Assembly (NCBI GenBank): GCA_963827705.1
Contig: CAWHBN010000001.1
Coordinates: forward strand, 41,973 to 105,972
Direction of reading: 5' to 3'
Origin: an uncultured Actinomycetes bacterium
GTDB taxonomy: Bacteria > Actinomycetota > Thermoleophilia > Gaiellales > Gaiellaceae
DNA length: 64,000 nt
This document shows positions 11,233 to 41,144 of the stretch, in pieces. The position numbers and the translations under genes were made by a program. The stretch's first letter is position 1. Each line of letters begins with the position of its first letter. The notes under the pieces are model-generated. The model did no database searches and was not told the DNA's origin. It worked only from the letters and a program-made list of their open reading frames with translations.

Positions 11233-11236
11233 GCGC

Positions 11237-11710: not shown

Positions 11711-11730
11711 GGCCTCGATTGAACCAGAGG

Positions 11731-13945: not shown

Positions 13946-13956
13946 AACTGAGCCTC

Positions 13957-16052: not shown

Positions 16053-16751
16053 TCACGCCACGACCCGATAGACCTCGAACACCTCGGCGTACTCGCGATT
16101 CACGTTGATCCCGTGCGTCCGGGCGACGTTCCAGATGTACTCGGGGTCGGAGTACCGGCGGTGCTGCTGCGATTCGTACTTCGCGAGCGCGCGCACCTTC
16201 CGTTCCACGTGCTCCTTCTCGAGCGCAAAGTAGGCCTGGTAGTCGAAGTTGAAGTTGTTCCACGGGATCTCGTACCCGAGGATCGTCGTCCGCTTGAAGG
16301 CGCGGAGGCCCTCGGCGGCAATGACCTGGTGATCCTGGTGGATGTCGCGCAGGCTCGGCTGGAGCACCGCGTCGGGCTTCCACTCCTCCCACAGCCCGAT
16401 CAGGAGCTCGAGGATCTCCTGGCGGCGCTCGGGAAAGGTGCGCACTTCGAAGTCGTGGACGTCGAGCCGCTCTTCGGAGATACCGAGCTCGGCTGTCGCC
16501 TCGCGCACCTCCCGCGCGAGCGTGTCGGGAGGGAAGCCCTCCGGCAGCGAGCGGGTCGCGATCGAGAAGGCGACGTAGCGGACGTCCGTCCCGCCGTCCA
16601 CCAGACGCGCGAGCGTGGCGCCGCATCCGAACTCGCCGTCGTCCGTGTGCGGCGCGAGAACGAGGACGCGCTTCCAGGCTGTGATCACAGGTGCCCCGTC
16701 CGGTAATGCCGCTGGATTTCTGGGTCGCGAGCACCAAGCCAGAGGCCGCAA
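16053..16751 (-). CDS. PIG-L/LmbE-family N-acetylglucosaminyl deacetylase
   Basis: Motifs VLVLAPHTDDGEFGCGATL and HQDH. The true start may be the internal GTG (VITAWKR). Confidence 0.85.
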   Translation of the reverse strand: MRPLAWCSRPRNPAALPDGAPVITAWKRVLVLAPHTDDGEFGCGATLARLVDGGTDVRYVAFSIATRSLPEGFPPDTLAREVREATAELGISEERLDVHDFEVRTFPERRQEILELLIGLWEEWKPDAVLQPSLRDIHQDHQVIAAEGLRAFKRTTILGYEIPWNNFNFDYQAYFALEKEHVERKVRALAKYESQQHRRYSDPEYIWNVARTHGINVNREYAEVFEVYRVVA

Positions 16752-24613: not shown

Positions 24614-25576
24614 CTAACTCCGATATAGAGAGTTCTGTACTTCTCTCGTCGCCACGAAGACCTGGGAGCCTTCCTCGAGCTCGAGCTGCTCGGCTTCCGA
24701 CTTCGTCATCTGCACCCACACCTCTCGGCCGTCCTCGAGCGCGAGGTCGGCGCGCACCTCGAAGCCGAGGTGGACGACCCGCTCGACCGTCGCACGCTCG
24801 GCCGACCCGTTCGGCTCGCGCCGCACCTCGATGTCGTGCGGGCGGACGAGCTCCTCGCCGAAGCTCGAGACGGGCCCGATGAACGTCATCACGAACTCGT
24901 TCGCCGGCCGCTCGTAGAGGTCGCGCGCACCGCCGATCTGCTCGACACGGCCCTCGTTCATGAGGACGATCTGGTCGGCGATCTCCATCGCCTCTTCCTG
25001 GTCGTGCGTCACGAAAATGGTCGTCACGTGCACCTCGTCGTGGAGGCGGCGGAGCCAGGCGCGGAGCTCCTTGCGAACACGCGCGTCGAGGGCGCCGAAC
25101 GGCTCGTCCAGGAGCAGCACCTTCGGCTCGACGGCGAGCGCCCGTGCGAGCGCCATCCGCTGTCGCTGTCCGCCCGAGAGCTGCGCCGGATAGCGCTTCG
25201 CGAGCCCGCCGAGCTGGACGAGGTCGAGGAGCTCGCCGACGCGCTCCTTGATCTCCGCCTTCGGCCGCTTGCGGATGGTCAGGCCAAACGCGACGTTGTC
25301 CCAGACGGTCATGTGCTTGAAGGCCGCGTAGTGCTGGAAGACGAAGCCGACGCCCCGCTTCTGCGGCGAGACGGTCGTCGCCTCCTCGCCCGAGATGAAG
25401 ACCTCGCCGGCGTCGGGCTGCTCGAGCCCGGCGATCACGCGAAGCAGCGTCGACTTCCCGCTGCCGCTCGGCCCGAGCAGCGCTGTCAGCGAGCCACTCT
25501 CGACCTCGACGGACACGTTGTCGATCGCCGTGAAGTCGCCGAAGCACTTCGAGACGTTGCGGACCTCGATCGCCAT
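24614..25576 (-). CDS. cysA: Sulfate/thiosulfate ABC transporter ATP-binding protein
   Basis: [15 protein letters not shown]...[12 protein letters not shown]...LSGGQRQR...LLLDEP, with a CysA-type C-terminal regulatory domain. The start overlaps the cysW stop (TGATG). Confidence 0.9.
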
Positions 25577-26364
25577 CAGTGCTCGTCCTTTCGGAGCAGA
25601 GTCATCGCCAGCAGCGTCATGACGGCAAGGAGCGCGAGCACGACCGAAGCCGCGTACGCATCCTGCACCTCGAACGCCTGGAACCGCTCCTCGACGTGGA
25701 GCGTCATCGTCTCCGTGCGGCCGGCGATCCGCCCGGAGACGACGCTGACCGCGCCGAACTCGCCGAGCGCACGAGCGGTGGTCAGGACAACGCCATAGGC
25801 AACTCCCCAGCGGATCGCGGGAAGCGTCACGCGCCAGAAGGTCTGCCAAGAGGACGCACCGAGCGTGGCGGAGGCCTCCTCCTGCTCGTCGCCGATCTCA
25901 CGCAGGACGGGGACCACCTCACGGACGACGAACGGCAGCGAGACGAAGATGGTCGCCAGCACCATCCCGGGCAGCGCAAAGATCACCTGGAAGCCGTTGT
26001 CGATCAGCCAGCCGCCCCACCAGCCCTGGCGTCCGTACACGAGAACCAGCGCGAGCCCGACGACGACCGGCGACAGAGCCAGCGGCAGGTCCACGATGCT
26101 GTTCACGAGCCCGTGGCCGCGGAACTTCCGGCGAACGATCGCGAGCGCGCACATGATCCCGAAGACGGTGTTCAGAGGCACCGCGATCAACGCGATCAAG
26201 ATCGTCAGCCAGAGGGCGTGCAACGCCTCCGGCGTCGTGATCGCCGCGAAGAACTCTGCAATCCCGTCCTCGAACGCACGGAACACGACCAGCCCGACCG
26301 GGACGATGAGCAGCGCGGCGAGGTAGCCGAGCGCGGCGAATCTCAGGACGTACCTAGAGGTCAT
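25576..26364 (-). CDS. cysW: Sulfate ABC transporter permease
   Basis: 262-aa ORF with the EAA-loop region [22 protein letters not shown] and [15 protein letters not shown]. Confidence 0.9.
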
Positions 26365-27176
26365 GCCTCGTGGCCCAGCGGCGCACGCCGCCGATCGCGA
26401 GCAGAACTCCGAGCGAGGCGACGAGCAGGACGACGGACACGGCGGCCGCGCCGGTGACGTTGTCGCTCTCGATCTGCCCGAAGATGTAGACGGACGCGAC
26501 CTCGGTCTTGAACGGCTGGTTGCCCGGAGATCAGGACGACGGCGCCGAACTCACCGAGCGCTCGGGCGAACCCGAGCGCCGTCCCCGACAGGATCGCCGG
26601 GAACAGGTTCGGGAAGACGACTCGCCTGAAGGTCTGGAGCGGTGTGGCGCCGAGCGAATGCGCCGCCTCCTCCATGTCGCGGTCGAGCTCGAGCAGCACC
26701 GGCTGCACGGTGCGGACGACGAACGGCAGGGTCACGAACAGCAGCGCGAGAACGAGCGCCCCCGTCGTGTACGCGACGTTCACTCCGATCGGGCTCCGCG
26801 GGCCGTAGAGCGCGAGCAGCGTCAGGCCGGCGACGATCGTCGGAAGCGCGAAGGGCAGGTCGATTAGCGCGTTCACCAGGCTCTTGCCGCGGAACGAGTC
26901 GCGGACGAGCACCCAGGCGGTCACCGTCCCGGCGACGGCATTGATCAGCACCACGCCGAGCGAGATCGCGAAGGTGAGCTTGAGCGCAGCGACCGCCTGC
27001 GGCTCGGTGATCGCATCCCAGAAAGCCTGTGCTCCGCCCTCCATGGAGCGGAGCACGAGCGCTGCGAGCGGGATCAGGACGATCACGCTCAGGTATCCGG
27101 TCGTCACGCCCAGGCTGAGCGTGGCTTCACGCCGCCTCCGGAGCGGTTTGGCGACCGGTTGCGCGACGCTACTCAA
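26354..27176 (-). pseudogene. cysT: Sulfate ABC transporter permease CysT interrupted by a +1 frameshift (extra G in a G-run at 26523-26525)
   Basis: The listed ORF ends in an Arg-rich tail (..VLISGQPAVQDRGRVRLHLRADRERQRHRRG). Shifting one base after ISG restores [55 protein letters not shown]. This is collinear with the E. coli CysU C-terminus as I recall it and ends at TAG 26354. Confidence 0.8.
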
Positions 27177-28170
27177 GGGCTGCGCCGACCTCCCTCTGAA
27201 TGCCCGCCATGATCCCGTCCTCGCGGTCGAAGAACGTCTTCTGCACCTCGTCCCAGCCGCCAACGTCCTCGATCGTGAAGAGGTCGGGCGGGGTAGGGAA
27301 CTGGAACTCGCCGGCGACCGCCTCGTTCACCGGCCGGTAGCCCGCCTTGCCGAAGACGCGTTGCGCCTCCTCCCCGCGGATGTAGTCGAGGAAGCCAGCC
27401 GCCTGTTCAGGCGTGTCCTTCGTCACCGCGACGGGGTTCTCGATCAGGATCGTCTGGTCCGGCACGACGTAGTCGAGGTCCTCGCCCTTCTCCTGGGCCA
27501 GGATCGCCTCGTTCTCGTACGCGAGCAGGACGTCGCCCTTCCCGCCGGTGAAGGTCTGGAGCGATTCGCGCGCGCTCTTGTCCTGGACGGAGACATGCTT
27601 GAAGAGCTCGCCGAGGTACTCGACTGCCTGCTCGTGCGTCTTGCCGAGCTTCCTCTGCGCGCCGTAGGCCGCCATGACGTTCCACCGCGCTCCGCCCGAG
27701 GTGAACGGGTTGGGCTCGATCACCTCGACGCCGTCCTTGACCAGGTCGTCCCAGGTCTTGATGCCCTTCGGGTTCCCTTTCCGGACTGCGAAGACGACGA
27801 CCGAGTTCGTGACCATGCCGTTGTACTGGTCATCGGCCCAGGTCTCGGCGACCTGACCGGACTCGACGAGCCGATCGACGTCCGGCGCGAGCGAGAAGGC
27901 GACGACGTCGGCCGGCAGTCCTTGCTCGACGGCGCGGCTCTGCTCGCCCGAGCTGCCGTACGACTCGTCGAACGAGACGCCCTTGCCGGCGTCCGTCTTG
28001 GCGAAGTCCTTCGTCAGCTGCGCATAGACCTCGCGCGGTGTCGAGTACGCGACGAGCGTCAGCTTCGCGCCGTCGGAACCGGCTTCCGCCGACTCCTCCG
28101 ACGTCCCGCCGCACGCCGTGACCAACGCGGCTACGGCAATGGCGGCGAGTGCCAGAATAAGAGAACGCAT
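27169..28170 (-). CDS. sbp: Sulfate/thiosulfate-binding lipoprotein
   Basis: ATG 28170 follows AGGAGG. Lipobox LVTAC. Sbp-like sequence LVAYSTPREVY...GSSGEQSRAV..G..ADV... Confidence 0.9.
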   Translation of the reverse strand: MRSLILALAAIAVAALVTACGGTSEESAEAGSDGAKLTLVAYSTPREVYAQLTKDFAKTDAGKGVSFDESYGSSGEQSRAVEQGLPADVVAFSLAPDVDRLVESGQVAETWADDQYNGMVTNSVVVFAVRKGNPKGIKTWDDLVKDGVEVIEPNPFTSGGARWNVMAAYGAQRKLGKTHEQAVEYLGELFKHVSVQDKSARESLQTFTGGKGDVLLAYENEAILAQEKGEDLDYVVPDQTILIENPVAVTKDTPEQAAGFLDYIRGEEAQRVFGKAGYRPVNEAVAGEFQFPTPPDLFTIEDVGGWDEVQKTFFDREDGIMAGIQREVGAALE

Positions 28171-28191
28171 GGGGCCTCCTGAGATTGGAAA

Positions 28192-28212
28192 CGCTAATTT
28201 CACGGATTAGCG
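28192..28212. promoter_or_regulatory. Palindrome CGCTAAT-N7-ATTAGCG upstream of sbp (shared motif, copy 1)
   Basis: 7-bp perfect arms, 22 nt upstream of the sbp ATG and 2 nt downstream of a candidate -10 element. The same GCTAAT-N7-ATTAGC occurs at 34064-34082. Confidence 0.5.
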
Positions 28213-28249: not shown

Positions 28250-29398
28250 TCAGGCGCGGTAAGCCTCGATCAGCACCTCGGCGACCTCGGGCCGCGAGAA
28301 CTCCACGGGCGGGACCTCGCCGTTCGTCAGCATCTCCCGCACCTTCGTTCCCGACAGGAACACGTGGTCGTCGCCGCCGTGCGGGCAGGTCTTCGGCGAG
28401 ACCATCGCCTCGCAGCGCTTGCAGTAGACGGCGTGCTCGAAGAACATCGGCTCGATGTCGAGCTCGTGCGGCTCGAACTCGTCGAAGATCTGCTGCGCGT
28501 CGTAGGAGCCGTAGTAGTCGCCGACGCCGGCGTGGTCGCGGCCGACGATGAAGTGCGAGCAGCCGTAGTTCTTGCGGCAGATCGCGTGCCAGATCGCCTC
28601 CCGCGGGCCCGCGTAGCGCATGGCCGCCGGGAAGGCGGAGACGACGACGCGGTCGGCCGGGTAGTAGTTGTCGACGAGCACGCGGTAGCAGTCGACGCGC
28701 GTCTTGGCCGGAACGTCGTCCTGCTTCGTGTCGCCGACGAGCGGGTGGATCAGAAGGCCGTCGACGGTCTCGAGCGCCGTCTTCGTCAGGTACTCGTGCG
28801 CCCGGTGGATCGGGTTGCGGGTCTGGAAGCCGACGATGCGCTTCCAGCCACGCTTCTCGAACTCCGCGCGGGTCTCCGCGGGATCGAGCGCGAGCTCCGG
28901 GAAAGGCGGCACGGCCCGCTCGAAGACCGTGACCCGGCCGGCGAGGTAGAGCGGCTTCTGCGCGTAGAGGCGCGCCACTCCCGGGTGGGCGTCGTCGGTG
29001 GTGCGGAAGCACTGCTCGGCCTCACGTTCCTTGTCGTACTCGTAGGTCTCCTCGACCTCGAGCACCGCGACGAGGCGGCCCGATTCGTCGGCGAGCGCCA
29101 CGCGATCGCCCTCGGGCGCCTTGTCGACTGCAAGGCAGACCGGCAGTGCCCACGGGAGGCCGCTCACGAGGCGCATCTCCTCGACCACGCGCTCGTAGTC
29201 CTCTCGGCCCATGAAGCCCTCCAGCGGGCTGAGAGCGCCCGAGGCGAGCATGTCCAGGTCGGACAGCTCGCGGGACGTCAGCGTGACGACCTCGAGCTGC
29301 TCGACGTCGTCCGGCCGCTCGCCGGTGCGGTCGACGAGCTCCCCGCCGTGTGGCTCGATCAGACCTGTCCCAGTGACTGTCACTGAGGCGTGGCTCAT
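28250..29398 (-). CDS. sat: Sulfate adenylyltransferase (ATP sulfurylase)
   Basis: 382-aa ORF with [18 protein letters not shown] and [10 protein letters not shown]. Confidence 0.92.
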
Positions 29399-29947
29399 GC
29401 GGCCACCTCGGCCGGGACGAGGCCCAGCTCCTCGAGCTTGGCGACGACGATCTGCGCGGACTCCTCCGGCTCGTGCTCCTCTGTGTCGATCCGAAGCTCC
29501 GGGCTCTCCGGCTCCTCGTACGGATCCGACACCCCCGTGAACTCCTTGATCTCGCCGCTGAAGGCCTTCTCATAGAGGCCCTTGACGTCGCGGCGGGCGC
29601 ACTCCTCCACCGAGGTCGCAATGAAGACCTCGACGAAGCGTCCATGCCCCTCGACCATGCTCGCGGGCGTGCCGCCGCGTCTCCTCGTAGGGCGAGATCG
29701 CGGAGACGAGCACCGCGGCGCCGTGTCGCGTCAGCCGCGAGGCGACCCAGCCGATGCGCTCGATGTTGGTGTCGCGGTCCTCCTTCGAGAAGCCGAGGCC
29801 CTTCGAGAGGTGGGTGCGGACGACGTCGCCGTCGAGGTACTCGACGAGGTGGCCGCGGCGCTCGAGCTCGGGGCCGACGATTTCCGCGATCGTCGTCTTC
29901 CCGGCCCCCGAGAGCCCGGTGAACCAGAGCGTGAATCCGTCAGGCAT
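29395..29947 (-). pseudogene. cysC: Adenylylsulfate (APS) kinase split by a +1 frameshift (extra base at about 29659)
   Basis: The N-terminal part [19 protein letters not shown]...[12 protein letters not shown] is in ORF 29570..29962. The C-terminal part [29 protein letters not shown]... is in ORF 29395..29658. The junction reads CGC GAG C ATG GTC, and removing one base joins them seamlessly. Confidence 0.85.
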
Positions 29948-30653
29948 TGGTCTCCTTCGCATCGATGGGTGTGTCCAGATGGATGCCGCACTCGAGCTTG
30001 TCCGAGCCGGCCCAGCGTCCGGCCCGCTCCTCCTCGTCGGGCGCGGTCGGGCGGGTGCAGGGCATGCAGCCGATCGACCGGTAGCCGGCGTCGTGGAGCG
30101 GGTTGAACGGGATCTCGTTGACGTGGATGTAGAGCCAGACCTTGCGCTCGTCCCAGTCGGCGAGCGGGTGCACCTTCCAGACGCCGTAGCGCTCCGACCA
30201 CTGCAGCTTCGGCGTGGTGGCGCGGCTCGGCGACTGGTCTCGCCGAATCCCGCTGATCCAGGCGTCGTACGGCTTCAGCGCGTCGAGGAGCGGCTCGACC
30301 TTGCGGATGTGGCAGCAGCGGTCGGGATCCCGCTCCCAGAGGTTCGGGCCCTCTTGCTTGTGCTGCTCGGCGACGGTAATCACCGGCGGGGGCGGCAGCA
30401 GGCTCAGGCCGTAGCGCTCAACGAGCCGGTCACGCGTGTCGTAGGTCTCGCGGAAGAAGAGATGCGTGTCGAGCTCGACGATCGGGACGTCGAGGCCGAG
30501 CTCCGAGACCATGTGGACGAGGACCGACGATTGCTTCTGCCAGGAGCAGGTGAGGCAGAGCTTGTCGCCGTACTCCTCGTGGGCCCAGCGGAGCAGGTCC
30601 TCCGCGGACATGGCTTCGACGTCCTGTTCAGGAAGCGGGGGCGCGGTCGCCAA
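29940..30653 (-). CDS. cysH: APS/PAPS reductase, Fe-S (APS reductase) type
   Basis: Cys pairs RCCHIRK and SIGCMPCT plus the catalytic ECGIH tail. As far as I recall, this CC...CxxC set marks 4Fe-4S APS reductases such as those of M. tuberculosis and P. aeruginosa. Confidence 0.88.
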
Positions 30654-31374
30654 GGAGCACCTCCTTCAATGTGTCGGCGCGAAGCCCGCGCCGGAGTGTC
30701 TCGAGCGGGATGGCTTCCTCGGGCGGGATGTTCCCGAGGTTCACGGTCGGCCCGAAGCGCTTCACGAACCAGGCCTGCGCGGCCTTGGTCGGCGCCTCGA
30801 AGATGACGTCGTCGAGGTCGACGGCGGAGCCGATCTCCTCGACCAGGTCGGTGCGCATGGCGCCGTCCGACGTGAAGATCCCGGAGCTCGCGCCCTCGCG
30901 CGCTTCGGTGATCACCTTCCAAGCGCCGGCGTCGAGCTCCTCGCGGAGCCACTGCGTCCACTCCTCGGACGTGAACTCGACGGAGGAATCCTTCGAGCCG
31001 ACCTCGGAGAGGACCGTGAAGTCGCGAGCCAAGTCTGCGATGAGCTCCAGCTTCTGCTCGCGCGGAATCTCGACGGCGCCGTCCGAGACCTCGACGTGGT
31101 CGAGCCCGAGGTCGGCGAGCCACTGCTTGTAGCGGTCGAGCTGGCCGGTGGCCCAGACGGCTTCGAAGAACGTCCCGCCGACGACGACGCGCTTCTCGCG
31201 CAGGACGTCGAGCTTCTTCCGGAGGTTCGCCGTGACGAAGGCGGTGCCCCAACCGAGCTTGACGACGTCGATGTAGAGGCCGCTCGTCTCGAGCACGTCC
31301 TCCCAGGCGCGCGGCCCGAGACCCTTGTCGAGGACATGCGTCAGCCCGCCTTCGGGCGCCTCAAAGCTCAGCAA
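30628..31374 (-). CDS. comA: (2R)-phospho-3-sulfolactate synthase (ComA family)
   Basis: Collinear with my recollection of M. jannaschii ComA: GLTHVLDKGL, DVVKLGWGT, GGTFFE, VEVSDG, EVGSKD, LDAGAWKVITEAREG, VIFEAPTKAAQAWFVKRFGPTVNLGNI, PLETLRRGLRADT. Confidence 0.85.
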   Translation of the reverse strand: MLSFEAPEGGLTHVLDKGLGPRAWEDVLETSGLYIDVVKLGWGTAFVTANLRKKLDVLREKRVVVGGTFFEAVWATGQLDRYKQWLADLGLDHVEVSDGAVEIPREQKLELIADLARDFTVLSEVGSKDSSVEFTSEEWTQWLREELDAGAWKVITEAREGASSGIFTSDGAMRTDLVEEIGSAVDLDDVIFEAPTKAAQAWFVKRFGPTVNLGNIPPEEAIPLETLRRGLRADTLKEVLLGDRAPAS

Positions 31375-31945
31375 GGATCTTCTCCAGGCGCTCGTTCGCC
31401 GCCTCGTTGACGTCGTGGAACATCGAGTTGCCGTGCGAGTCGATCCCGACCCAGAGCGGGCCGAAGTCCTTGACGCGGAACTTCCAGAGGCACTCCGGCA
31501 TCAGCTCCTCCCAGGCGACCTCCTCGATCTCCTCGATCTGGGTCGTCTCGAGTGCCGCGGCGCCGCCGACGATCGCGAAGTAGACCATCCCGTGCTCGCG
31601 CATCGGCTCGATCGCCTCGTCGGGCAGGCCGCCCTTGCCGCAGATCGCGCGGACGCCGTAGTCGCGGCCGAGCGGCTCCGTGAAGCGCACCATGCGCGCG
31701 CTGGTCGTCGTGCCGATGCAGACGGGGTCGTAGCCGCCGTCGTCCCGCTTGCGGACTCCCGGCGCGGTGTGCAGCAGAAATGCGCCGTTCAAGTCCATCG
31801 GCGGCGCGATGCCCTGGTCGAAGATCCGGATCTGCGTGCGGTCGCGGATCCCGATGATGTGCCCGTCCACGGTGACAAGGTCGCCGGCGCGAAGCTTGCG
31901 GGTGTCCTCTTCCGAGGCCGGGAATGTGAGTCTGTGCTCGGCCAT
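31361..31945 (-). CDS. Fe-S hydro-lyase beta subunit (class I fumarate hydratase / tartrate dehydratase beta-type, Fumerase_C)
   Basis: ATG 31945 follows GGGAGG. The sequence GDLVTVDGHIIGIRDRTQ...TTTSARMV...AICGKGGL...YFAIVGGAAAL is typical of FumB/TtdB-like beta subunits. Confidence 0.8.
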   Translation of the reverse strand: MAEHRLTFPASEEDTRKLRAGDLVTVDGHIIGIRDRTQIRIFDQGIAPPMDLNGAFLLHTAPGVRKRDDGGYDPVCIGTTTSARMVRFTEPLGRDYGVRAICGKGGLPDEAIEPMREHGMVYFAIVGGAAALETTQIEEIEEVAWEELMPECLWKFRVKDFGPLWVGIDSHGNSMFHDVNEAANERLEKILAEL

Positions 31946-31947
31946 TC

Positions 31948-32850
31948 CTATGCCTCCCGGTCGTACTCGACGGAGCCGTCGGCGCCGATATGCGCGGAGG
32001 CGCGCCGCGCCGCCCAGCACTGGTAGTTGACGGCCACCGGGTTCAGCGTCATGTGCGTGTCGGCATGCTCGATGTGGCACTGAAGGACAGTGACGTCGCC
32101 GCCGAGCCCCATCGGGCCGATCCCGGTCTCGTTCAGCAGCCGGTAGAGGTCATCCTCCAGCTCCGCGACCAGCGGGTCGGGGTTCCGGGTGCCGACGGGC
32201 CTGGCGATGGCCTCTTTCGCGAGGTGCATCGCGTAATCGGCCGAGCCGCCGATCCCCACTCCGACGATTCCGGGCGGGCAGGGCTTCCCGCCGGCGCCGA
32301 CGATCGACTCGAGCACGAACTGCTTGATCCCCTTCACGCCGTCGGCGGGGACGCACATCTTGAGGAAGCTCATGTTCTCCGAGCCCGATCCCTTCGGGAC
32401 AGACTTGACGTCGAGGCCGTCCCAGTCCGAGACGAAGTCCCAGTGGACGATCGGGACCCTGTAGCCGACGTTCGGCCCCGTGTTCTCGCGCGTGAGCGTG
32501 TGGACGATGTTCGAGCGCAAGGGGTGGTCGAGCGTCGCGCGCATCGTCCCGTCGTAGAGCGCCTGGTAGATCCGGGCGGGGTGGAGCGGAAAGTGCTCGC
32601 CGACCCGGCAGTAGTAAACGGCGATCCCGGTGTCCTGGCAGACCAGGTTGTTCTCGCGTTCTGCCACCTGGACGTTCTTGAGGATCGTCTGGAGGACGCG
32701 CTGACCGGGAATGGACGTCTCCTTTCGGGACGCGTCCGCCAGGGCGTCGCGGAGGTCCTGGGGGATGTCCTTCAGCGCCCAGACGTAGAGGTGCGCCGCG
32801 GCATCCTCGACAGATTGCTGCAGCGTACCTAGGGCGCGTAGCGCGCTCAT
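31948..32850 (-). CDS. Fe-S hydro-lyase alpha subunit (class I fumarate hydratase / tartrate dehydratase alpha-type)
   Basis: ATG 32850 overlaps the flavoprotein stop (ATGA). Motifs LVCQDTGIAVYY, VPKGSGSENMS and PPGIVGVGIGGSAD. Confidence 0.8.
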   Translation of the reverse strand: MSALRALGTLQQSVEDAAAHLYVWALKDIPQDLRDALADASRKETSIPGQRVLQTILKNVQVAERENNLVCQDTGIAVYYCRVGEHFPLHPARIYQALYDGTMRATLDHPLRSNIVHTLTRENTGPNVGYRVPIVHWDFVSDWDGLDVKSVPKGSGSENMSFLKMCVPADGVKGIKQFVLESIVGAGGKPCPPGIVGVGIGGSADYAMHLAKEAIARPVGTRNPDPLVAELEDDLYRLLNETGIGPMGLGGDVTVLQCHIEHADTHMTLNPVAVNYQCWAARRASAHIGADGSVEYDREA

Positions 32851-34061
32851 GCCGCCGCCTTCTCCGCCGCCGCCTTGCCGGCGCGACGGCCGAACACCGT
32901 GCACTCGAGCAGCGAGTTGCCCATCATCCGGTTCCTTCCGTGCGTGCCGCCGGCGATCTCGCCGGCCGCGTAGACCCCTTCCAACGTCGTCTCTCCCTGC
33001 TCGTCGATCACGAGCCCGCCGTTCTGGTAGTGGAGCACCGGGTAGGTCAGGATCCGCTCCTTTAGCGGGTCGATCCCGCCTGCGCGGTAGCGGCGGAGCA
33101 TGTACGGGAGCGATACCTCCGCGTCAGCCTCAGCGATCCGGGTCGTGTCGAGGTAGACCGCAGGGCGGCCGTCCTCGGTCTCGACGCCCCTCCCGTTCTC
33201 GACCTCGTCGAAGATCGCCTGAGAGACCTCGTCGCGCGGCCCGAGGGAGTCCGTGAACTCCTCGCCGTCGGCGTTGAGCAGGACCGCGCCGTAGGCACGC
33301 GTGGTCTCCGGGATCGAGTAGCCCTGCATGTTCTCGGGCCAGGCGCCGCCGTTCGGGTGGTACTGGAGCGCGTCAAGGTCCCGCGACTCGGCACCCAGAG
33401 CAAGCGCGAACTGCGTCACCTCGCCCGTCGCTCCCGGATGGTTCGTCGAGAGCTCGCCGCGCTCCTTCGCCTCGCGGAAGCAGCGGCCGCCTGCGGCGAG
33501 GACGACGGTCGCGGCCTCGATGTCGTGTTCCCCGCACCGCGCTAACCAGCCGTTCTCGATCTCCTTGAGCTCCGTCAACGGCGACTTCGGAAACGCGGTG
33601 CCGGAGCCCGACTCGAACGCGTCCTTCAGCGCAGACGTAATCGCGAGACCGGTCCGGTCGCCGACCTGGAGCAGACGCTTGCGAGTCGCGCCGCCGCAGC
33701 GTGCGAGCCGGTAGCCGCCGTTCTCGCGCGTGAACTGGACGCCGAGCTCCTCGAGCCAGTGGATCGCCGGCGGCGCCTCCGACGTGAGGATCTCGACGAG
33801 GCGGCGATCGGCGGTTTCGTGCGAGCTATGCCAGACGTCCTCGGCGTGGATCTCTGGGGTGTCGTCCTCGCCGAACGCGGCCTGGATCCCGCCCTGCGCC
33901 TTGGCCGAATTGCAGGACTGAAGCGCGCCCTTGGTTGCCAGTGCGACCCGCGCGCCGGCCCGCTCGGCGGAGACGGCGGCCGCGAGGCCGGAGGCCCCCG
34001 ATCCGATCACGAGCACGTCGAAAGAGAGCTTGCCGCCCACGACTGCGATCCTACCACCCAT
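32847..34061 (-). CDS. Short (about 400 aa) FAD_binding_2 flavoprotein related to fumarate reductase/succinate dehydrogenase flavoprotein and L-aspartate oxidase
   Basis: Motifs DVLVIGSGASGLAAA, SAKAQGGI (no His at the covalent-FAD position), QYHPNG (compare QFHPTG) and GRNRMMGNSLLE (compare ANRLGSNSLLE). It lacks the C-terminal helical domain. The start may be GTG about 21 nt downstream. Confidence 0.8.
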   Translation of the reverse strand: MGGRIAVVGGKLSFDVLVIGSGASGLAAAVSAERAGARVALATKGALQSCNSAKAQGGIQAAFGEDDTPEIHAEDVWHSSHETADRRLVEILTSEAPPAIHWLEELGVQFTRENGGYRLARCGGATRKRLLQVGDRTGLAITSALKDAFESGSGTAFPKSPLTELKEIENGWLARCGEHDIEAATVVLAAGGRCFREAKERGELSTNHPGATGEVTQFALALGAESRDLDALQYHPNGGAWPENMQGYSIPETTRAYGAVLLNADGEEFTDSLGPRDEVSQAIFDEVENGRGVETEDGRPAVYLDTTRIAEADAEVSLPYMLRRYRAGGIDPLKERILTYPVLHYQNGGLVIDEQGETTLEGVYAAGEIAGGTHGRNRMMGNSLLECTVFGRRAGKAAAEKAAA

Positions 34062-34119: not shown

Positions 34120-34407
34120 ATGGTCAAGACGATCGGCCTCGTCGGGATCCTCTGCGCTGCGGCAATCCTCGGGATGACCTGGGCGCGCCAGAGCTTCCAG
34201 GCGACGGAGAAAGCGCCCGCTGCCATCCTCCAGGCGGCTGCGACGGTCCTCGAGTTCAATCACCGGACGACCGGCACATACGACGCAGGGAAGGTCGAAA
34301 CCGTCACGCTCGCCTGGGCGGACCAGTCCCGGTACTGCATCGAGTTCGGCGGCCAGCACATCGCCGGTCCCGGCGGCACGCCGACCACCGGCGACTGTCC
34401 GCGCTAA
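34120..34407 (+). CDS. Small membrane-anchored or secreted hypothetical protein
   Basis: 95-aa ORF with an N-terminal hydrophobic segment MVKTIGLVGILCAAAILGMTWA, divergent from the sulfur operon. Coding status is plausible but unproven. Confidence 0.5.
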   Translation: MVKTIGLVGILCAAAILGMTWARQSFQATEKAPAAILQAAATVLEFNHRTTGTYDAGKVETVTLAWADQSRYCIEFGGQHIAGPGGTPTTGDCPR

Positions 34408-35354
34408 TAGATCGACTGGAACAGCTCGGCGATCTCGGCCGGTGACGCAGGCCTCGGGTTCGCCTTTGCCCCAGCGCGCTGGGCGGTCGCCTCGGCGACG
34501 ACGTCCAGCTCCTGCTCAGGGACGTCGAAGTCGCGCAGCCGCTCGAAGCCCCCGAGCCGCGCCAGCTCCTCCACGCGATCCGCCGCGTGGTCGGCGCCGA
34601 TCGACTTCCCGAAATCGTCGATCGCCTCCGTCGCAACCGGCTCGTTGAACCGGAGCGCGGGCGGCAGGCACAGCGCGTTCATCGCGCCGTGCGGAAGGCC
34701 GTAGCGGCCGCCGAGTGCCTGCGCCATCGCGTGGCCGAGACAGAGGCCGGAAAGCCCGAGCGCTTCGCCCGCGCGTGCGGCTCCTTTCAGCAGGGTCTTC
34801 CGAGGGCCGAGCGCCCCGAGGTTCTCGAGCACGGCGGGTAGCGAGCCGTTGATCAGCTCTGCGCCTTCGTGCGCGGCCCGATCGGACTCGGGGCTCCGTG
34901 CCGGGTGGTACAACGCCTCGGCGGCGTGGGCCAGCGCGTTGAGCGCGGTGCCCGCCGTCTCCTCCCGGAGCAGGTCGAGCGTCAGCTCCGGGTCGTAGAC
35001 GATCGCCGCGAGCTTCGCGTCGCCTCCGCCGCCGACCATCCGCTTGTCGGGGTCGCGAACGCCGTAGAACGGCGTCCACTCCGAGCCCGAGTACGTCGTC
35101 GGAACCGAGACGAGCGGCAAACCGCTCGCCGCCGACGCCGCCTTGGCCGTGTCGATGGCGCTGCCGCCGCCCACCGCGAGCACGCCGTCGACGCCCTCCG
35201 GCACCTCGATCCGGTGCGACGGGATCTCCTCCCAGCGTGCCGCCGCGGGAAGTTCCAGTGGGCTCCACCGCGGGCTTGCGACCAGAAAAGGCCGCTCGAT
35301 CCCCAACTCGCGGAGGACGCCCGGTAGCTCCTCCAGGCCCCAGCGGACGATCAC
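34404..35354 (-). CDS. Iron-containing alcohol dehydrogenase family protein (maleylacetate reductase-like)
   Basis: 316-aa ORF with AVGGGSAIDTAKA and the His-rich site LCLGHAMAQALGGRYGLPHG. Confidence 0.8.
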   Translation of the reverse strand: MIVRWGLEELPGVLRELGIERPFLVASPRWSPLELPAAARWEEIPSHRIEVPEGVDGVLAVGGGSAIDTAKAASAASGLPLVSVPTTYSGSEWTPFYGVRDPDKRMVGGGGDAKLAAIVYDPELTLDLLREETAGTALNALAHAAEALYHPARSPESDRAAHEGAELINGSLPAVLENLGALGPRKTLLKGAARAGEALGLSGLCLGHAMAQALGGRYGLPHGAMNALCLPPALRFNEPVATEAIDDFGKSIGADHAADRVEELARLGGFERLRDFDVPEQELDVVAEATAQRAGAKANPRPASPAEIAELFQSIY

Positions 35355-36241
35355 GGGATTCGCTCGCGCGCGAAGGCGACGAACGCCTCCGCGACCCTGC
35401 TCGGCGTCCGGCCGGTCGAGCGGACCAGCGAGATCTCGCGAGTCGGCGCCAGCCCCTCGACTGTCGCAGCCGCGAGGGTGCCCGCCGCCAGCTCCGGCTC
35501 GATCGAGGACCTGGAGATGAACGTGACGCCGTGACCGGCGGCAACCGCCGCTTTCACCGACTCCTGCAGCCCCAGCTCGAGCTTCACGTCGAGGTCGCGG
35601 AGCCGCACGCCGCCGGCCCGCAGCTCGTCCTCGACCATCTGCCTGACCCCGGCTCCCTCCTGCATGAGGATCACCGCCTCGGCGCGAAGATCGTCGAGCT
35701 TCACGGTCGCGCCGGCGAGCTTGTGGCCCGGCGGGACGGCGAGCACGATCTGGTCCTGGAAGAACGGCTCGAAGGTCACGGCTCGATGGCGTGGCGCCGC
35801 CCCGACGACGCCGAGCTCGAGCCGCCGCTCCGCCACGAGGTCGATCACGTGCAGCGTGTCGTTGACCGAGAGCGAGATCGCGACGTCAGGGTTCTCGCGC
35901 TGGAACTCGCAGAGCAGGAGCGGAAGGACGGTCGCGCCGGGGCCGGTCGAGCAGCCGATCTCGAGCCGGCCGCGCAGTTCGTCGCTCTCGCCGGAGACCT
36001 CCTCCAGCAGCTGCTGCTCGAGCGCCAGCATCCGCTGAGCGCTTCGGTACAGCCGCTGGCCGGCCTCGGTCGGCTCGACCCGCCGCCCGGAGCGGTCGAG
36101 GAGCCGCTCGCCGAGCCGCTTCTCGAGCGAACGGATCTGGAGACTGACCGCAGGCTGGGTGACGCCGAGCTGCTCGGCCGCGAGCGAGAAGCTCTTCCGG
36201 TCGACGACGGCGCAGAAGGCCGCAAGCTGACGAGTGTCCAT
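35351..36241 (-). CDS. LysR-family transcriptional regulator
   Basis: MDTRQLAAFCAVVDRKSFSLAAEQLGVTQPAVSLQIRSLE is a textbook LysR helix-turn-helix. The 3' end overlaps the Fe-ADH start by 4 nt. Confidence 0.9.
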   Translation of the reverse strand: MDTRQLAAFCAVVDRKSFSLAAEQLGVTQPAVSLQIRSLEKRLGERLLDRSGRRVEPTEAGQRLYRSAQRMLALEQQLLEEVSGESDELRGRLEIGCSTGPGATVLPLLLCEFQRENPDVAISLSVNDTLHVIDLVAERRLELGVVGAAPRHRAVTFEPFFQDQIVLAVPPGHKLAGATVKLDDLRAEAVILMQEGAGVRQMVEDELRAGGVRLRDLDVKLELGLQESVKAAVAAGHGVTFISRSSIEPELAAGTLAAATVEGLAPTREISLVRSTGRTPSRVAEAFVAFARERIP

Positions 36242-36346
36242 AAGTCAGCATGATACGTAGGCCAAAACTCATAAGGGTTGAGGTTTGGGAGAATCAGGTA
36301 CGAGAGACACATGCGGCCGTTCTTTTTAGGGGAAAGGGGAGACATC

Positions 36347-38205: not shown

Positions 38206-38892
38206 GTGCAGACTCGGTCGCAGAGCTCGCTTACCGAGAGCTTCATCCGGCGCGCCCGCGAGAGCCCGCGGCGCAACCGTGTCGACGCCGTCCTGCGCGG
38301 CCTCGACATCGGCCTCTCGCTCGTCTTCGCCGCACTCGCGCTCATCCCGGTGGCGTTGATCTCGCTCGCCATCGTCCTGTCGAGCGGTAGGCCGGTGCTC
38401 TACCGCGGCACGCGGGTCGGGCGGGGCGGCGAGTTCTACACGATGCTCAAGTTCCGAACGCTGCGCCGAGGCGCCGAGCAACGGCTCGGCGCGCATCTCG
38501 GCGAGGAGCTCGTCTTCCGGACGAAGGAGGAGCGGACGACCGTCGGGGGCTGGCTGCGAGCGACGCAGCTGGACGAGCTCCCGCAGCTCCTCAACATCCT
38601 CCGCGGCGACATGAGCTTCGTCGGGCCGCGGCCGATCCGGCCGATCTTCTTCGAGCAGCTTGCGTCGGACTTGCCGGCGTACTGGCAGCGCCTCGTCGTG
38701 CGCCCGGGTCTGACGGGGTTCGCGCAGGTGCGGCGCGGCTACGAGACGTCGATGGCCGAAAAGCTCGCGCACGACATGGAGTGGATCGCCGACCGCTCCG
38801 TCGGCCTCTACCTGCGGACGCTCGCCGCCACCGGCTGGCGCGTGCTGCGCCAGTCGCTGCGCGGGGCGGTCCGACCGACGCGCGTAGAGTGA
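38206..38892 (+). CDS. Polyprenyl-phosphate sugar-1-phosphate transferase (bacterial sugar transferase, WbaP/EpsL-like)
   Basis: 228-aa ORF with one TM helix, KFRTL, DELPQLLNILRGDMSFVGPRP and RPGLTGFAQV. Confidence 0.85.
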   Translation: MQTRSQSSLTESFIRRARESPRRNRVDAVLRGLDIGLSLVFAALALIPVALISLAIVLSSGRPVLYRGTRVGRGGEFYTMLKFRTLRRGAEQRLGAHLGEELVFRTKEERTTVGGWLRATQLDELPQLLNILRGDMSFVGPRPIRPIFFEQLASDLPAYWQRLVVRPGLTGFAQVRRGYETSMAEKLAHDMEWIADRSVGLYLRTLAATGWRVLRQSLRGAVRPTRVE

Positions 38893-38898
38893 GGCGCC

Positions 38899-40779
38899 GT
38901 GTGTGGGATCTGCGGACTCGCAACTAAGAGCGGGCCGGTCGACCCCGAGCGCCTGCGCGCGATGAGCGCCACGCTCGTCCACCGCGGCCCCGATTCCGAC
39001 GGCGAGCTGCTCGACGGTCCGGTCGGGCTCGCCGCGCGCCGGCTCTCGATCATCGACCTGGAGGGCGGCGACCAGCCGATCGCGAACGAAGACGGCACCG
39101 TCCACGTCGTCCAGAACGGCGAGCTCTACAACTTCCGGGAGCTGCGGGCGGAGCTGGAGCAGGCCGGGCACCGATTCTCGACCCGCTCCGACACCGAAGT
39201 GCTCGTCCACCTCTACGAGGAGCACGGCGAGAACTTCGCCGAGCGGCTTCGCGGGATGTTCGCCGTCGCGATCTGGGACTCGCGCCGCCGCCGGCTCGTG
39301 ATCGCGCGGGACCGGTTCGGCATCAAGCCGCTCTACTACCGGGACGAGGCCGGCGAGCTCGCGTTCGCGTCCGAGCTGCGCGCCCTCCCCCGCGGCGAGG
39401 TCGACCCGGACGCGCTCGAGGCGTTCCTCGCCTTCAACTCGGTGCCGGCGCCGTATTCGATCTTCACCGGAACGCGCAAGCTGCCCGCCGGGCATCTCCT
39501 CGTCTGGGAGGACGGCGAGACGCGGGTCGAGCGATACGCACGGCCGATGCCGGCCGAGGTGCGTGACGAGGATTCCGCCGAGCTGGCCGAGGAGCTGCGC
39601 GCTCGTCTCCGGGACTCCGTGCGGGCGCACCTGATCGCCGACGTCCCCGTCGGGGTGTTGCTGTCCGGCGGCGTGGACTCGTCTCTCCTCGCGGCGCTCG
39701 CCGCCCAGGAGAGCGGCGAGGAGGTGCACACGTTCTCGATCGGGTTCGAGGAGCGCTCGTTCGACGAGCTCGACGACGCGCGCTCCGTCTCGTCCATGTA
39801 CGGGACGCGCCACGAGGAGCTGACGCTCAGGCCCGACGCCGCGCTGCTCCTGCCGCGACTCGCCGAGACCTTCGACGAGCCCTTCGCCGACTCGTCGGCG
39901 CTTCCGACCTACCTCGTCTCGGAGCTGGCGGCGCGGCACGTGAAGGTCGCGCTCTCCGGGGAGGGCGGCGACGAGCTCTTCGGCGGCTACTACACCTACG
40001 CCGCCGACCTGCTGGCGCTCCGCGTCGGCCGTTTCGCCCCAGGGGTCAGGCCCCTGGTGGAGCGGCTGCCGAGCTCGAGCCGCCGGGCGAGCTTCGACTA
40101 CAAGGCGAAGCGGTTCGTCCGCGGGGCCGCGTTGCCCCCGCTCGAGCGGCACCACGCCTGGAAGGAGATCTTCTCCCCGGACTTGCGAGCCGAGCTGACC
40201 GGCCGTCGGTCGGCTTTCGATCCTGTCGACCTCCTCCGCGCCCGCTTCGAGGAGACGGAGGGCGCCGAGCTGTTGACGCGACTCCAGGACGTCGACCTCG
40301 GCACCTACCTCGTCGACGACCTGCTCGTAAAGACCGACCGGGCCTCGATGGCGCACTCGCTCGAGGCGCGCGTGCCGTACCTCGATCCCGTCGTCGCCGG
40401 TCTTGCGCAATCGCTGCCGACCCGCCTCAAGGTCCGAGGGCTGCGGAAGAAGGTCCTGCTGCGGAAGGCCGCGGCGCCGCTCCTGCCACGGCGAATCGTC
40501 TACGGCCGCAAGCGCGGGTTCTCGATCCCGGCCGCGGCCTGGCTCCGCGGCGAGCTCGAGCCGTTCGCGCGTGACGTGCTCGCTCCGGGCACGCTGCGCC
40601 GGCAGGGCTTCTTCAGGCCCGAGCCGGTCGAACGGCTGATCGACCGCCACGTCGCGGGCGAGGAGGATCTCTCGCGCCAGCTGTGGGGGCTGCTCGCCTT
40701 CACGCTCTGGCACGAGCACCACGTGGAGCGCACGCCCGGCCCGCTGCGCGAGCCGCGGCTCGCCGCAGCCGTCGCTTGA
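38899..40779 (+). CDS. asnB: Asparagine synthase (glutamine-hydrolysing) family amidotransferase
   Basis: MCGICG N-terminal nucleophile and the SGGVDSS PP-loop, 626 aa. Confidence 0.9.
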   Translation: MCGICGLATKSGPVDPERLRAMSATLVHRGPDSDGELLDGPVGLAARRLSIIDLEGGDQPIANEDGTVHVVQNGELYNFRELRAELEQAGHRFSTRSDTEVLVHLYEEHGENFAERLRGMFAVAIWDSRRRRLVIARDRFGIKPLYYRDEAGELAFASELRALPRGEVDPDALEAFLAFNSVPAPYSIFTGTRKLPAGHLLVWEDGETRVERYARPMPAEVRDEDSAELAEELRARLRDSVRAHLIADVPVGVLLSGGVDSSLLAALAAQESGEEVHTFSIGFEERSFDELDDARSVSSMYGTRHEELTLRPDAALLLPRLAETFDEPFADSSALPTYLVSELAARHVKVALSGEGGDELFGGYYTYAADLLALRVGRFAPGVRPLVERLPSSSRRASFDYKAKRFVRGAALPPLERHHAWKEIFSPDLRAELTGRRSAFDPVDLLRARFEETEGAELLTRLQDVDLGTYLVDDLLVKTDRASMAHSLEARVPYLDPVVAGLAQSLPTRLKVRGLRKKVLLRKAAAPLLPRRIVYGRKRGFSIPAAAWLRGELEPFARDVLAPGTLRRQGFFRPEPVERLIDRHVAGEEDLSRQLWGLLAFTLWHEHHVERTPGPLREPRLAAAVA

Positions 40780-41144
40780 GCGACCTGCCGCCGTTCGAGC
40801 TCGGGTACGCCCGGACCGAGCTGCGCCGCAGGCTCGTCGAAGCGGTGCTCGCCGGAAGGAAGACGGCGACCGCGGGACTGGCCGAATCGGGCGAGCCGGA
40901 GGACAAGCCGGGCGAGCGCTATGCGCTTCTCGGCTACGACGACGAGCCGGTCGGCGTCGTCGAGGTCACCGAGGCGCGAGTCGTACCGGCGTCGGAAATC
41001 GACGAACAGTTCGCCCGCGACGAGGGCGAAGGTTTCGAGTCCGTTGAGGAGTGGCGAGTCGACCACGAGCGCTTCTTCGAGCGGCCGATCGAGCCCGACA
41101 CGCTGATCGAGGCCGTGCGCTTCCGGCTCGTCGAGGACGGCTGA
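40776..41144 (+). CDS. ASCH domain protein
   Basis: TTG 40776 overlaps the asnB stop (TTGA). The sequence LVEAVLAGRKTATAG...YALLGYDDEPVGVVEVTE...FARDEGEGF fits the ASCH fold pattern. Confidence 0.65.
   Translation: MSDLPPFELGYARTELRRRLVEAVLAGRKTATAGLAESGEPEDKPGERYALLGYDDEPVGVVEVTEARVVPASEIDEQFARDEGEGFESVEEWRVDHERFFERPIEPDTLIEAVRFRLVEDG

Follow-up and report, generated by a model that had tools for sequence, protein, structure and literature searches.

ComA, the (2R)-phospho-3-sulfolactate synthase, starts the archaeal pathway to coenzyme M (CoM), in which it is followed by ComB, ComC and ComDE, and the bacterial CoM pathway of Xanthobacter autotrophicus (XcbB/ComA-XcbC-XcbD-XcbE-XcbA), in which XcbC forms sulfoacrylic acid by removing phosphate from phosphosulfolactate (PMC9457059). 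A ComA homologue also supplies a sulfonated short acyl group in the misNOPQ cassette (acyl carrier protein, acyl-CoA ligase, phosphosulfolactate synthase and glyoxalase), and the ComA-derived 2-sulfoacetyl group of misaugamycin-B is a precedent for N-acylation (PMC9136965). The present analysis concerns a comA locus in a 64,000-nt stretch of DNA (the whole of which is called the window), which has a G+C content of about 69% and encodes proteins whose nearest relatives come from metagenome-assembled genomes (MAGs) of Gaiellaceae (Thermoleophilia, Actinomycetota). In this window, the genes for a truncated flavoprotein, the two subunits of a fumarase-type hydro-lyase and ComA appear to form one conserved biosynthetic module, which would be co-transcribed here with genes of sulfate uptake and reduction. 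With slightly better than even confidence, the module is read as a route from sulfate through sulfite, phosphosulfolactate, (R)-sulfolactate and sulfoacrylate to 3-sulfopropionate, a pathway built entirely on comparative genomics and residue analysis.

In the proposed pathway, sulfate would be imported by Sbp-CysTWA, activated by Sat and reduced to sulfite by CysH, and ComA would join sulfite to phosphoenolpyruvate to give (2R)-phosphosulfolactate, the proteins of both steps being assigned through strong family matches. A phosphatase presumably encoded outside the locus would release (R)-sulfolactate, which the fumarase-type [4Fe-4S] hydro-lyase is predicted, from gene context, to dehydrate to sulfoacrylate. 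The truncated flavoprotein, which would hold its flavin adenine dinucleotide (FAD) non-covalently, is predicted from context and from a family-specific active-site substitution to reduce sulfoacrylate to 3-sulfopropionate. Ligation of this product to an amino sugar of an envelope glycan by ATP-grasp or adenylating enzymes, or else its export, is a speculative last step.

Architecture and distribution of the ComA-linked module

Domains were called with Pfam, equivalog scores were judged against NCBIfam cutoffs, and homologues were checked for with tblastn; compared loci carry L-numbers (e.g. L001, L081). The genes of the module and of sulfate supply are as follows, where FRD and SDH stand for fumarate reductase and succinate dehydrogenase, and APS and PAPS for adenosine 5'-phosphosulfate and its 3'-phosphorylated form.

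32847..34061, minus strand: truncated flavoprotein of the FRD/SDH/NadB type, 404 aa, FAD and capping domains only (PF00890, E 8e-64); proposed sulfoacrylate reductase
31948..32850, minus strand: alpha subunit of a two-subunit [4Fe-4S] class I hydro-lyase of fumarase type with the KGSGS loop (PF05681, E 3e-89); proposed (R)-sulfolactate dehydratase
31361..31945, minus strand: beta subunit of the hydro-lyase (PF05683, E 5e-28; 121 bits to 7XKY_B)
30628..31374, minus strand: ComA, (2R)-phospho-3-sulfolactate synthase (PF02679, E 1e-78)
29940..30653, minus strand: CysH, APS/PAPS reductase (PF01507, E 6e-49; NF002537, 257 bits); likely sulfite supplier for ComA
29395..29962, minus strand: cysC (APS kinase) with a 1-nt insertion near 29659, seen as two open reading frames (ORFs) with a single-base gap relative to L001 and L003
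28250..29398, minus strand: Sat, ATP sulfurylase (PF01747 and PF14306; NF003166, 540 bits)
24614..28203, minus strand: sulfate ATP-binding cassette (ABC) transporter Sbp-CysTWA, recognised from its translations and syntenic in the closest loci
27169-28203, minus strand: Sbp of the sulfate ABC transporter
26361-27263, minus strand: CysT of the sulfate ABC transporter
25576-26364, minus strand: CysW of the sulfate ABC transporter
about 24614-25579, minus strand: CysA, with ABC_tran and TOBE domains

From the flavoprotein gene through cysC the genes are predicted to be a single operon, because their start and stop codons overlap or abut throughout: the flavoprotein and alpha genes share ATGA, only 2 nt separate the alpha stop codon from the beta ATG, and overlaps are found at the beta/comA, comA/cysH and cysH/cysC junctions. 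ComA is full-length and scores 264 bits on PF02679, but 226 bits on the archaeal equivalog TIGR03849, below the cutoff of 280; its best solved relatives are Bacillus subtilis YitD (1U83, 183 bits) and Methanocaldococcus jannaschii ComA (1QWG, 160 bits). The reading frame of cysC, which is intact in L001 and L003, is split in two by the extra base near 29659 and represents either a pseudogene or an assembly error. The translation of CysH bears the CC...CxxC motif typical of APS reductases, so that the supply of sulfite may not need CysC.

A profile search of 185,579 species genomes with the family alignment returned 80 loci (L001-L080), all from Gaiellaceae/Gaiellales, and in all but one of the 65 that are sufficiently long (64 loci) the genes run flavoprotein, alpha, beta, ComA. 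This four-gene order survives insertions upstream (genes of the major facilitator superfamily (MFS) and others) and variable genes downstream, where either cys genes or a TauE/SafE permease are found. A further search of 1.8 billion representatives delineated a family of truncated flavoproteins of about 400 aa (35-55% identity) that extends to other lineages. In L081 (47% G+C), a flavoprotein 42% identical to that of the window is followed by Fumerase, Fumerase_C, ComA, His_Phos_1 and PIG-L genes within a polysaccharide cluster. In the Omnitrophota loci L171 and L172, NeuB, a CMP-sugar synthetase, an oxidoreductase and an aminotransferase precede a module composed of flavoprotein, Fumerase, Fumerase_C, a PseG-like protein, ComA, PAPS reductase, ComB (PF04029), an ATP-grasp enzyme and a PseH-like protein. 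A metagenome scan yielded mostly relatives of 530-580 aa with a different architecture, and members of the family itself only in L088, L089, L090 and L092.

A second arrangement lacks the fumarase altogether. In L082, L084, L085/86, L087, L088 and L089 the flavoprotein lies beside a Lyase_1 protein, and beside ComA too except in L082; these lyases score 387-461 bits on the NCBIfam model CoM_syn_XcbC against 255-273 bits on ArgH, and their loci often add an ATP-grasp or AMP-binding ligase together with PAPS reductase. Two unrelated lyases thus alternate between the same flavoprotein family and ComA, and the simplest reading is that sulfoacrylate is the product that both lyases share and the substrate of the flavoprotein, which points to sulfoacrylate as the common intermediate.

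The first-pass annotation of this DNA had described the flavoprotein as a 404-aa protein with SAKAQGGI, QYHPNG and GRNRMMGNSLLE that possesses neither the covalent-FAD histidine nor the C-terminal domain of SdhA/FrdA, had recognised a two-subunit Fe-S hydro-lyase with CQDTG and GSGSENMS, and had held that the genes encode no respiratory complex. All of this was borne out. The three flavoprotein motifs are present, Asn51 occupies the position of FrdA His44, and PF00890 is the sole Pfam domain, PF02910 (the C-terminal domain) not being found; PF05681 and PF05683 occur on the minus strand at 31948..32850 and 31361..31945. Neither an SdhB/FrdB subunit nor a membrane anchor lies beside the flavoprotein, whose neighbours encode LysR, Fe-ADH, hydro-lyase, ComA and CysH proteins, and the whole window is devoid of the ferredoxin motif CxxCxxCxxxCP. 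Together with the conserved ComA-linked block, this supports a functional tie of the three genes to ComA rather than to respiration.

The flavoprotein falls below every NCBIfam equivalog cutoff for NadB, TfrA, SdhA and FrdA; its top score is on nadB TIGR00551 (244 bits, cutoff 453; model positions 2-390 of 489), and the chain stops about 20 residues past the GNSLLE motif. The AlphaFold (AF2) model (predicted local distance difference test 94, predicted template-modelling score 0.92) has FrdA, Fcc3, SdhA and NadB as its top Foldseek matches, and its template-modelling score against FrdA is 0.87-0.88 when normalised to the query and 0.62 when normalised to the target, the FAD and capping domains alone being represented. 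The four residues of the FRD catalytic set, His235, Arg276, His344 and Arg378, correspond to FrdA His232, Arg287, His355 and Arg390 and are invariant in the family. The substitution that sets the family apart concerns a carboxylate-binding threonine (NadB Thr259, FrdA Thr244); in NadB, Thr259 and His244 bind one of the substrate carboxylates (PMC10249383). This residue is Pro251 in the window, its placement relative to the substrate being that given by sequence alignment to FrdA and NadB. Each of the 17 ComA-linked sequences examined has proline where FrdA has Thr244, and the nine long relatives examined, like FrdA and NadB, have threonine; among the best 150 database representatives, proline was found in 15 of 23 short-architecture proteins, and threonine or serine in 46 of 52 extended ones.

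A ComA-linked family is proposed here (not a curated one), with members of about 400-420 aa that contain Pro251 and lie beside ComA and a presumed sulfoacrylate-forming lyase, and the window protein fits this description. Residue 51 divides it into two subgroups according to the type of lyase, being asparagine with fumAB and lysine with XcbC-like proteins. Thousands of near-identical copies of the flavoprotein are present in metagenome databases, and a search of the window and of the 80 Gaiellaceae loci, which cover only a small part of each genome, turned up no second FRD-type flavoprotein and no SdhB-type motif. An archaeal member (P0149, from an archaeon MAG, HLC37137.1) of about 415 aa contains Ser-Thr, not Pro-Glu, at positions 251-252. 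In eight loci from gut and other metagenomes (L106, L110, L117, L121, L122, L130, L131 and L137), FRD-type flavoproteins of 535-560 aa lie beside a two-subunit fumarase with no ComA; these have about 90 extra N-terminal and about 50 extra C-terminal residues as well as Thr251, and may form a soluble fumarate-reducing pair with the fumarase.

The hydro-lyase and the competing explanations

The alpha subunit of the hydro-lyase scores 304 bits on TIGR00722/NF004885 (cutoff 276) and 251 bits against the M. jannaschii fumarase 7XKY_A, while the beta subunit scores 151 bits on TIGR00723, above the cutoff. Alpha contains CQDTG (as VCQDTG), KPCPP, YQCWA, the arginine of PLRS and KGSGSENMS, with the Cys ligands conserved in alignment to 7XKY and 5L2R-type chains; beta contains IRD, GTTTSARM and GKGG, which correspond to Arg421, Thr467/468, Arg471 and Lys491 of the Leishmania major fumarase LmFH. 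The roles of these residues are taken from work on LmFH and the M. jannaschii enzyme MjFH: in LmFH, Asp135 is the acid and Thr467 the base, Gln134, Arg173 and Arg421 hold the C4 carboxylate, and Arg471 and Lys491 hold C1 (bioRxiv 10.1101/2023.06.17.545066). The full set of carboxylate-binding residues is compatible with malate and speaks neither for nor against sulfolactate. The loop KGSGS matches KGXGS of the (S)-malate fumarases, not AGGGC of L-tartrate dehydratase. By the Cahn-Ingold-Prelog rules, (R)-sulfolactate corresponds in spatial arrangement to (S)-malate. Acceptance of both substrate pairs by one enzyme type has a precedent in ComC, which acts on sulfolactate as well as malate (PMC5695019).

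A sulfonate signature was looked for by comparison with M. jannaschii and gut-metagenome fumAB, and GTTTS (not GPTTS), IxGIRD, LHTAP and MPECLWKF, which the ComA-linked proteins have in common, were considered as candidates but rejected as present across a broad bacterial clade; GTTTS occurs in 118 of 120 homologues of the L081 beta subunit, including fumAB that follow sdhBCDA in L168 and L169. The comparison of ComA-linked with sdh-linked hydro-lyases gave only lineage noise and detected no such signature, and the window beta subunit is 57-62% identical to other ComA-linked ones. The enzyme may have changed little on recruitment, or it may still act as a fumarase, solely or in addition. Neither the window nor the 80 Gaiellaceae loci (again a small part of each genome) yielded a class II fumarase, and the window lacks the GSSxMPxKxN signature.

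The occurrence of phosphatases bears on the substrate of this enzyme. A phosphatase lies beside ComA in both non-Gaiellaceae fumarase-type loci with enough flank (His_Phos_1 in L081 and ComB in L171), but in none of the XcbC-type loci; its restriction to fumarase-type loci fits a dehydratase that needs free (R)-sulfolactate and argues against direct elimination of phosphate.

Several observations weigh against the proposed route to 3-sulfopropionate. Synteny inside one bacterial family reflects common descent in part. No electron donor for the flavoprotein is evident, and no ligase lies beside the module, the nearest ATP-grasp genes being 27-33 kb off. The first-pass annotation had noted that no ComB-type phosphatase is present, and indeed neither ComB nor the histidine phosphatase has a tblastn match in the window or in L001-L080, so that a phosphatase is presumably encoded elsewhere. 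The remaining points concern the hydro-lyase: all malate-binding and catalytic residues are kept, including those for the distal carboxylate (LmFH Arg173, Arg421 and Gln134); beta shares 61-64% identity with FumB proteins whose genes directly follow sdhBCDA in Acidobacteria and Planctomycetes (L168, L169), which makes these as near to it as other ComA-linked ones, and alpha is 48-49% identical to fumA of the same sdh operons; the ComA-linked hydro-lyases are not monophyletic in a neighbour-joining tree; in a Gaiellaceae MAG (L054, 1899-3900) the flavoprotein is directly followed by comA with no fumAB between them; and in L170 fumAB (7104-8591) has Wzy_C and LysR as neighbours, flavoprotein and ComA being absent within 8 kb.

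These points on the hydro-lyase, its KGXGS loop included, are the ones expected if it were merely, or also, a housekeeping fumarase, the flavoprotein and ComA cooperating on a substrate (sulfoacrylate or another compound) made in some other way. Such an arrangement is unlikely, though it is the main rival. In three independent lineages fumAB occupies the exact slot of the XcbC-like lyase, with tightly packed or overlapping genes; the non-Gaiellaceae fumarase-type loci with enough flank are those that add a phosphosulfolactate phosphatase; and no XcbC homologue was detected by tblastn in the window, so that nothing else there would make sulfoacrylate.

A catabolic direction is quite unlikely. 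Here the module would serve to scavenge sulfur from 3-sulfopropionate or sulfolactate: the flavoprotein would oxidise 3-sulfopropionate to sulfoacrylate and the hydro-lyase would hydrate this to sulfolactate, with release of sulfite, possibly by ComA in reverse. Co-regulation with sulfate assimilation would then explain why the module shares its operon with genes of sulfate uptake and with a LysR regulator; a thesis cited in PMC11489063 reports the sequence 3-sulfopropionate, sulfoacrylate, sulfolactate for Roseovarius, a reverse ComA reaction has been proposed speculatively for SAR11 (PMC11796062), and some relatives have a TauE/SafE or MFS permease next to the module. However, the locus contains neither a kinase to make phosphosulfolactate nor a sulfonate-type uptake system, and CysH beside ComA supplies sulfite and does not consume it. 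The orthologous flavoprotein is found with XcbC-like lyases, whose phosphate elimination is, in our own assessment, effectively irreversible, and the ComB, PAPS reductase and ligases within glycan or nonulosonic-acid clusters point to biosynthesis.

Direct elimination of phosphate from phosphosulfolactate by the hydro-lyase, a variant of the proposed route that dispenses with a phosphatase and that the first-pass annotation had offered as an option, is very unlikely and is disfavoured here. It would explain why the window and the 80 Gaiellaceae loci encode no phosphatase, and XcbC shows that the chemistry is feasible (PMC9457059). Against it, the KGSGSENMS loop, which contacts the C2 hydroxyl, and the cluster-binding region are of the same type as in the true fumarase MjFH, and the unchanged loop leaves no obvious space for a phosphate ester; the other two fumarase-type lineages with enough flank, moreover, encode the phosphatase beside ComA.

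There is only a slender chance that the genes form an ordinary soluble branch from malate through fumarate to succinate that merely happens to lie beside ComA. The flavoprotein retains all four FRD catalytic residues, and flavoprotein-fumAB adjacency without ComA is known from the gut-metagenome loci and from sdh operons, but the ComA-less flavoproteins are longer (530-580 aa) and contain threonine at position 251, every member of about 400 aa with Pro251 and enough flank adjoins a lyase and, except for L082, also ComA, and the XcbC-type loci do without any fumarase. That the flavoprotein is a cysteate oxidase resembling L-aspartate oxidase, the other alternative of the first-pass annotation, can be dismissed as highly improbable despite its best NCBIfam score (nadB) and its public label, as Glu121 of NadB, which binds and deprotonates the amino group of the substrate and distinguishes NadB from SDH/FRD (PMC10249383), is replaced by Cys122 in the window and by Ala, Gly, Ser, Thr or Val in the family, the partner lyases yield sulfoacrylate and not cysteate, and the C-terminal NadB domain is absent. 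The public annotations of the flavoprotein as 'L-aspartate oxidase' and of the hydro-lyase as 'L(+)-tartrate dehydratase' are probably wrong.

What remains favoured is the conversion of sulfolactate through sulfoacrylate to 3-sulfopropionate, which the first-pass annotation had put forward together with the expectation that residues binding the second carboxylate might be replaced in both enzymes. The linkage to ComA, the exchange of the hydro-lyase for XcbC-like proteins and Pro251 argue for the route, and the expected replacement was found in the ComA-linked flavoproteins; for the hydro-lyase the expectation failed, its distal-carboxylate residues being conserved throughout and no sulfonate signature being present.

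Neighbouring genes, glycan context and fate of the product

The genes upstream of the module, and those further off that may bear on the fate of the product, are listed below (ADH, alcohol dehydrogenase); the glycan, ligase, flippase, deacetylase and polymerase genes were assigned with Pfam.

34404..35354, minus strand: Fe-ADH family protein, maleylacetate-reductase-like, with a short N-terminus (PF25137 and PF00465; PDB 3JZD, 3HL0 and 3W5S)
35351..36241, minus strand: LysR-family regulator upstream of the module (PF00126 and PF03466; NF040786, 262.6 bits against a cutoff of 250)
38206-38892, plus strand: Bac_transf, adjacent glycan gene
38899-40779, plus strand: AsnB-like amidotransferase, adjacent glycan gene
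41051-42148, plus strand: DUF354, adjacent glycan gene
42045-44357, minus strand: PglF-like dehydratase ORF, adjacent glycan gene
43994-45079, minus strand: DegT aminotransferase, adjacent glycan gene
686-1936, plus strand: ATP-grasp ligase of LAL_C2 type, candidate ligase for the sulfonated acid
2673-4112, plus strand: Wzx-type flippase, between the two ATP-grasp genes
4636-5826, plus strand: ATP-grasp ligase of ATPgrasp_Ter/PylC-like type, candidate ligase for the sulfonated acid
16053-16751, minus strand: PIG-L family deacetylase
16897-18429, plus strand: Wzy_C polymerase/ligase

The LysR regulator is found upstream in 71 of the 80 Gaiellaceae loci; that of the window scores above the NCBIfam cutoff for the selenium metabolism-associated LysR family transcriptional regulator, and no selenium genes were seen nearby. 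The Fe-ADH protein accompanies the module in 65 of the 80 loci and is a partner only in Gaiellaceae. Its N-terminus is about 35-50 residues shorter than that of maleylacetate reductases, and its start overlaps the lysR stop. This protein was considered as the true sulfoacrylate reductase, the family being able to reduce C=C bonds, and was rejected for its absence from all module-bearing loci outside Gaiellaceae. The 343-bp gap between the Fe-ADH and flavoprotein genes contains a divergent ORF of 95 aa (34120-34407, plus strand) with an N-terminal hydrophobic helix and no Pfam match; it is conserved in L001-L006 and L043 (39-81% identity), and similar small ORFs occupy the same position in L022 and L033. 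A protein of 615 aa (36278-38125, plus strand) that looks secreted, with a C-terminus rich in His, Lys and Gly and no Pfam or NCBIfam match, separates the module from the glycan genes; not all Gaiellaceae loci have it at this place. The region 8394-14607 contains unrelated genes, namely those for a lamin-tail-domain protein, a phage-lysozyme-domain protein (9372-10061), a cupin, a multicopper oxidase (12933-13958) and a DtxR/IdeR-FeoA regulator (13957-14607).

The glycan genes at 38206..45079 possibly constitute the acceptor pathway, and at least one gene of the Bac_transf, AsnB-like, DUF354, PglF-like and DegT types adjoins the module in 64 of the 80 Gaiellaceae loci. Outside Gaiellaceae, the module sits among ligases and sugar deacetylases within glycan or pseudaminic-acid-type clusters, and the PIG-L and Wzy_C families also flank it in L081, L085 and L087. 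The ATP-grasp protein encoded at 686-1936 is 27% identical (E 2e-36) to that of the Omnitrophota ComA cluster L171. Since the families that stand beside the module elsewhere (ATP-grasp, PIG-L, Wzy, Wzx and amino-sugar genes) are also present in the window, they lend support to a glycan-linked module. In L170, a contig of 69% G+C, fumA and fumB come directly after DegT, DUF354, PglF and Wzy_C genes and before LysR.

Transporters are other recurrent neighbours. In Gaiellales loci without cys genes, ComA is directly followed by a TauE/SafE permease (L061, 11465-12373; L066, 11549-12436; L075, 9973-10875), and an MFS_3 exporter directly precedes the flavoprotein in L012 (6657-7952), L022, L033 and L045; these neighbours hint at transport of sulfite or of a sulfonate product. 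Judged by its gene neighbourhood, attachment of the product to a surface glycan is the preferred guess, with export as the alternative.

More broadly, it is tentatively suggested, at somewhat less than even confidence, that the module represents a widespread new route to 3-sulfopropionate with two new activities, an (R)-sulfolactate dehydratase derived from a class I fumarase and interchangeable with the XcbC type, and a sulfoacrylate reductase that would be a minimal FRD with the Thr-to-Pro change. Ligation of the product to amino sugars or nonulosonic acids would, on the same suggestion, create new sulfonated (C-S) surface glycans in soil Gaiellaceae, Omnitrophota, low-GC lineages and possibly archaea. 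A literature search, whose coverage excluded most subscription journals, returned no description of the module or of a 3-sulfopropionyl glycan. If the proposal is true, Fe-S fumarase and fumarate reductase flavoprotein types would gain physiological activities on sulfonate analogues, and sulfoacrylate, so far only from bacterial CoM synthesis, would become a branch point to biosynthetic 3-sulfopropionate. A dedicated pathway that turns sulfate into a C3 sulfonate would matter for the organosulfur pools of soil, where few actinobacteria are more abundant than Gaiellaceae. The recurring setting in glycan or pseudaminic-acid-type clusters predicts a new anionic, sulfatase-resistant glycan decoration.

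Comparison with known systems

The flavoprotein shares the FAD/capping fold and the His/Arg/His/Arg set with FrdA/SdhA of complex II, but possesses neither the covalent-FAD histidine nor the C-terminal helical domain, the Fe-S partner and the membrane anchor. Its non-covalent FAD would be as in Fcc3 and NadB. In comparison with FrdA, Shewanella Fcc3, yeast Osm1 and NadB, it is a chain of 404 aa with no heme or flavin mononucleotide domain and with the carboxylate threonine changed to proline, and it differs from NadB further in the loss of Glu121 and of the C-terminal three-helix domain.

The hydro-lyase has the same Pfam domains, three Cys ligands, catalytic Asp and Thr and substrate residues as the M. 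jannaschii fumarase 7XKY and TtdAB. Unlike fumarases in an sdh or tricarboxylic-acid-cycle context, it sits between a truncated flavoprotein and ComA, and its proposed substrate is (R)-sulfolactate.

The metabolism of 3-sulfopropionate in the degradation of sulfoquinovose/2,3-dihydroxypropane-1-sulfonate and homotaurine (HpfXYZ; Roseovarius route) likewise connects 3-sulfopropionate, sulfoacrylate and sulfolactate in a single pathway (PMC11489063). Those routes are catabolic and, as far as their enzymes are known, rely on aldehyde dehydrogenase and CoA ligase. From the misNOPQ cassette, in which ComA likewise leads to a sulfonated short acyl (PMC9136965), the module differs in its other downstream enzymes and in the proposed product, a C3 sulfopropionyl group on a presumed glycan instead of a C2 sulfoacetyl group on a peptide antibiotic.

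ComA is shared with the archaeal CoM pathway, as is ComB in the Omnitrophota locus L171, where it would give (R)-sulfolactate. The loci examined showed neither ComC nor ComDE, no search having been aimed at them, and the proposal has sulfolactate undergo dehydration instead of oxidation to sulfopyruvate. The Xanthobacter pathway (PMC9457059) is the closest in its chemistry, as it has both the ComA start and sulfoacrylic acid in common with the proposed route. The window is without XcbC, and its NCBIfam-scanned genes are without an XcbD match, XcbE and XcbA not having been specifically searched for. Sulfoacrylate would be formed here from dephosphorylated sulfolactate by a [4Fe-4S] class I hydro-lyase, and would be reduced by the flavoprotein to 3-sulfopropionate, not thiolated with cysteine on the way to CoM. 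The parts that would be new relative to the bacterial CoM pathway are thus the route to sulfoacrylate, through a phosphatase and an Fe-S dehydratase, and its flavin-dependent reduction.

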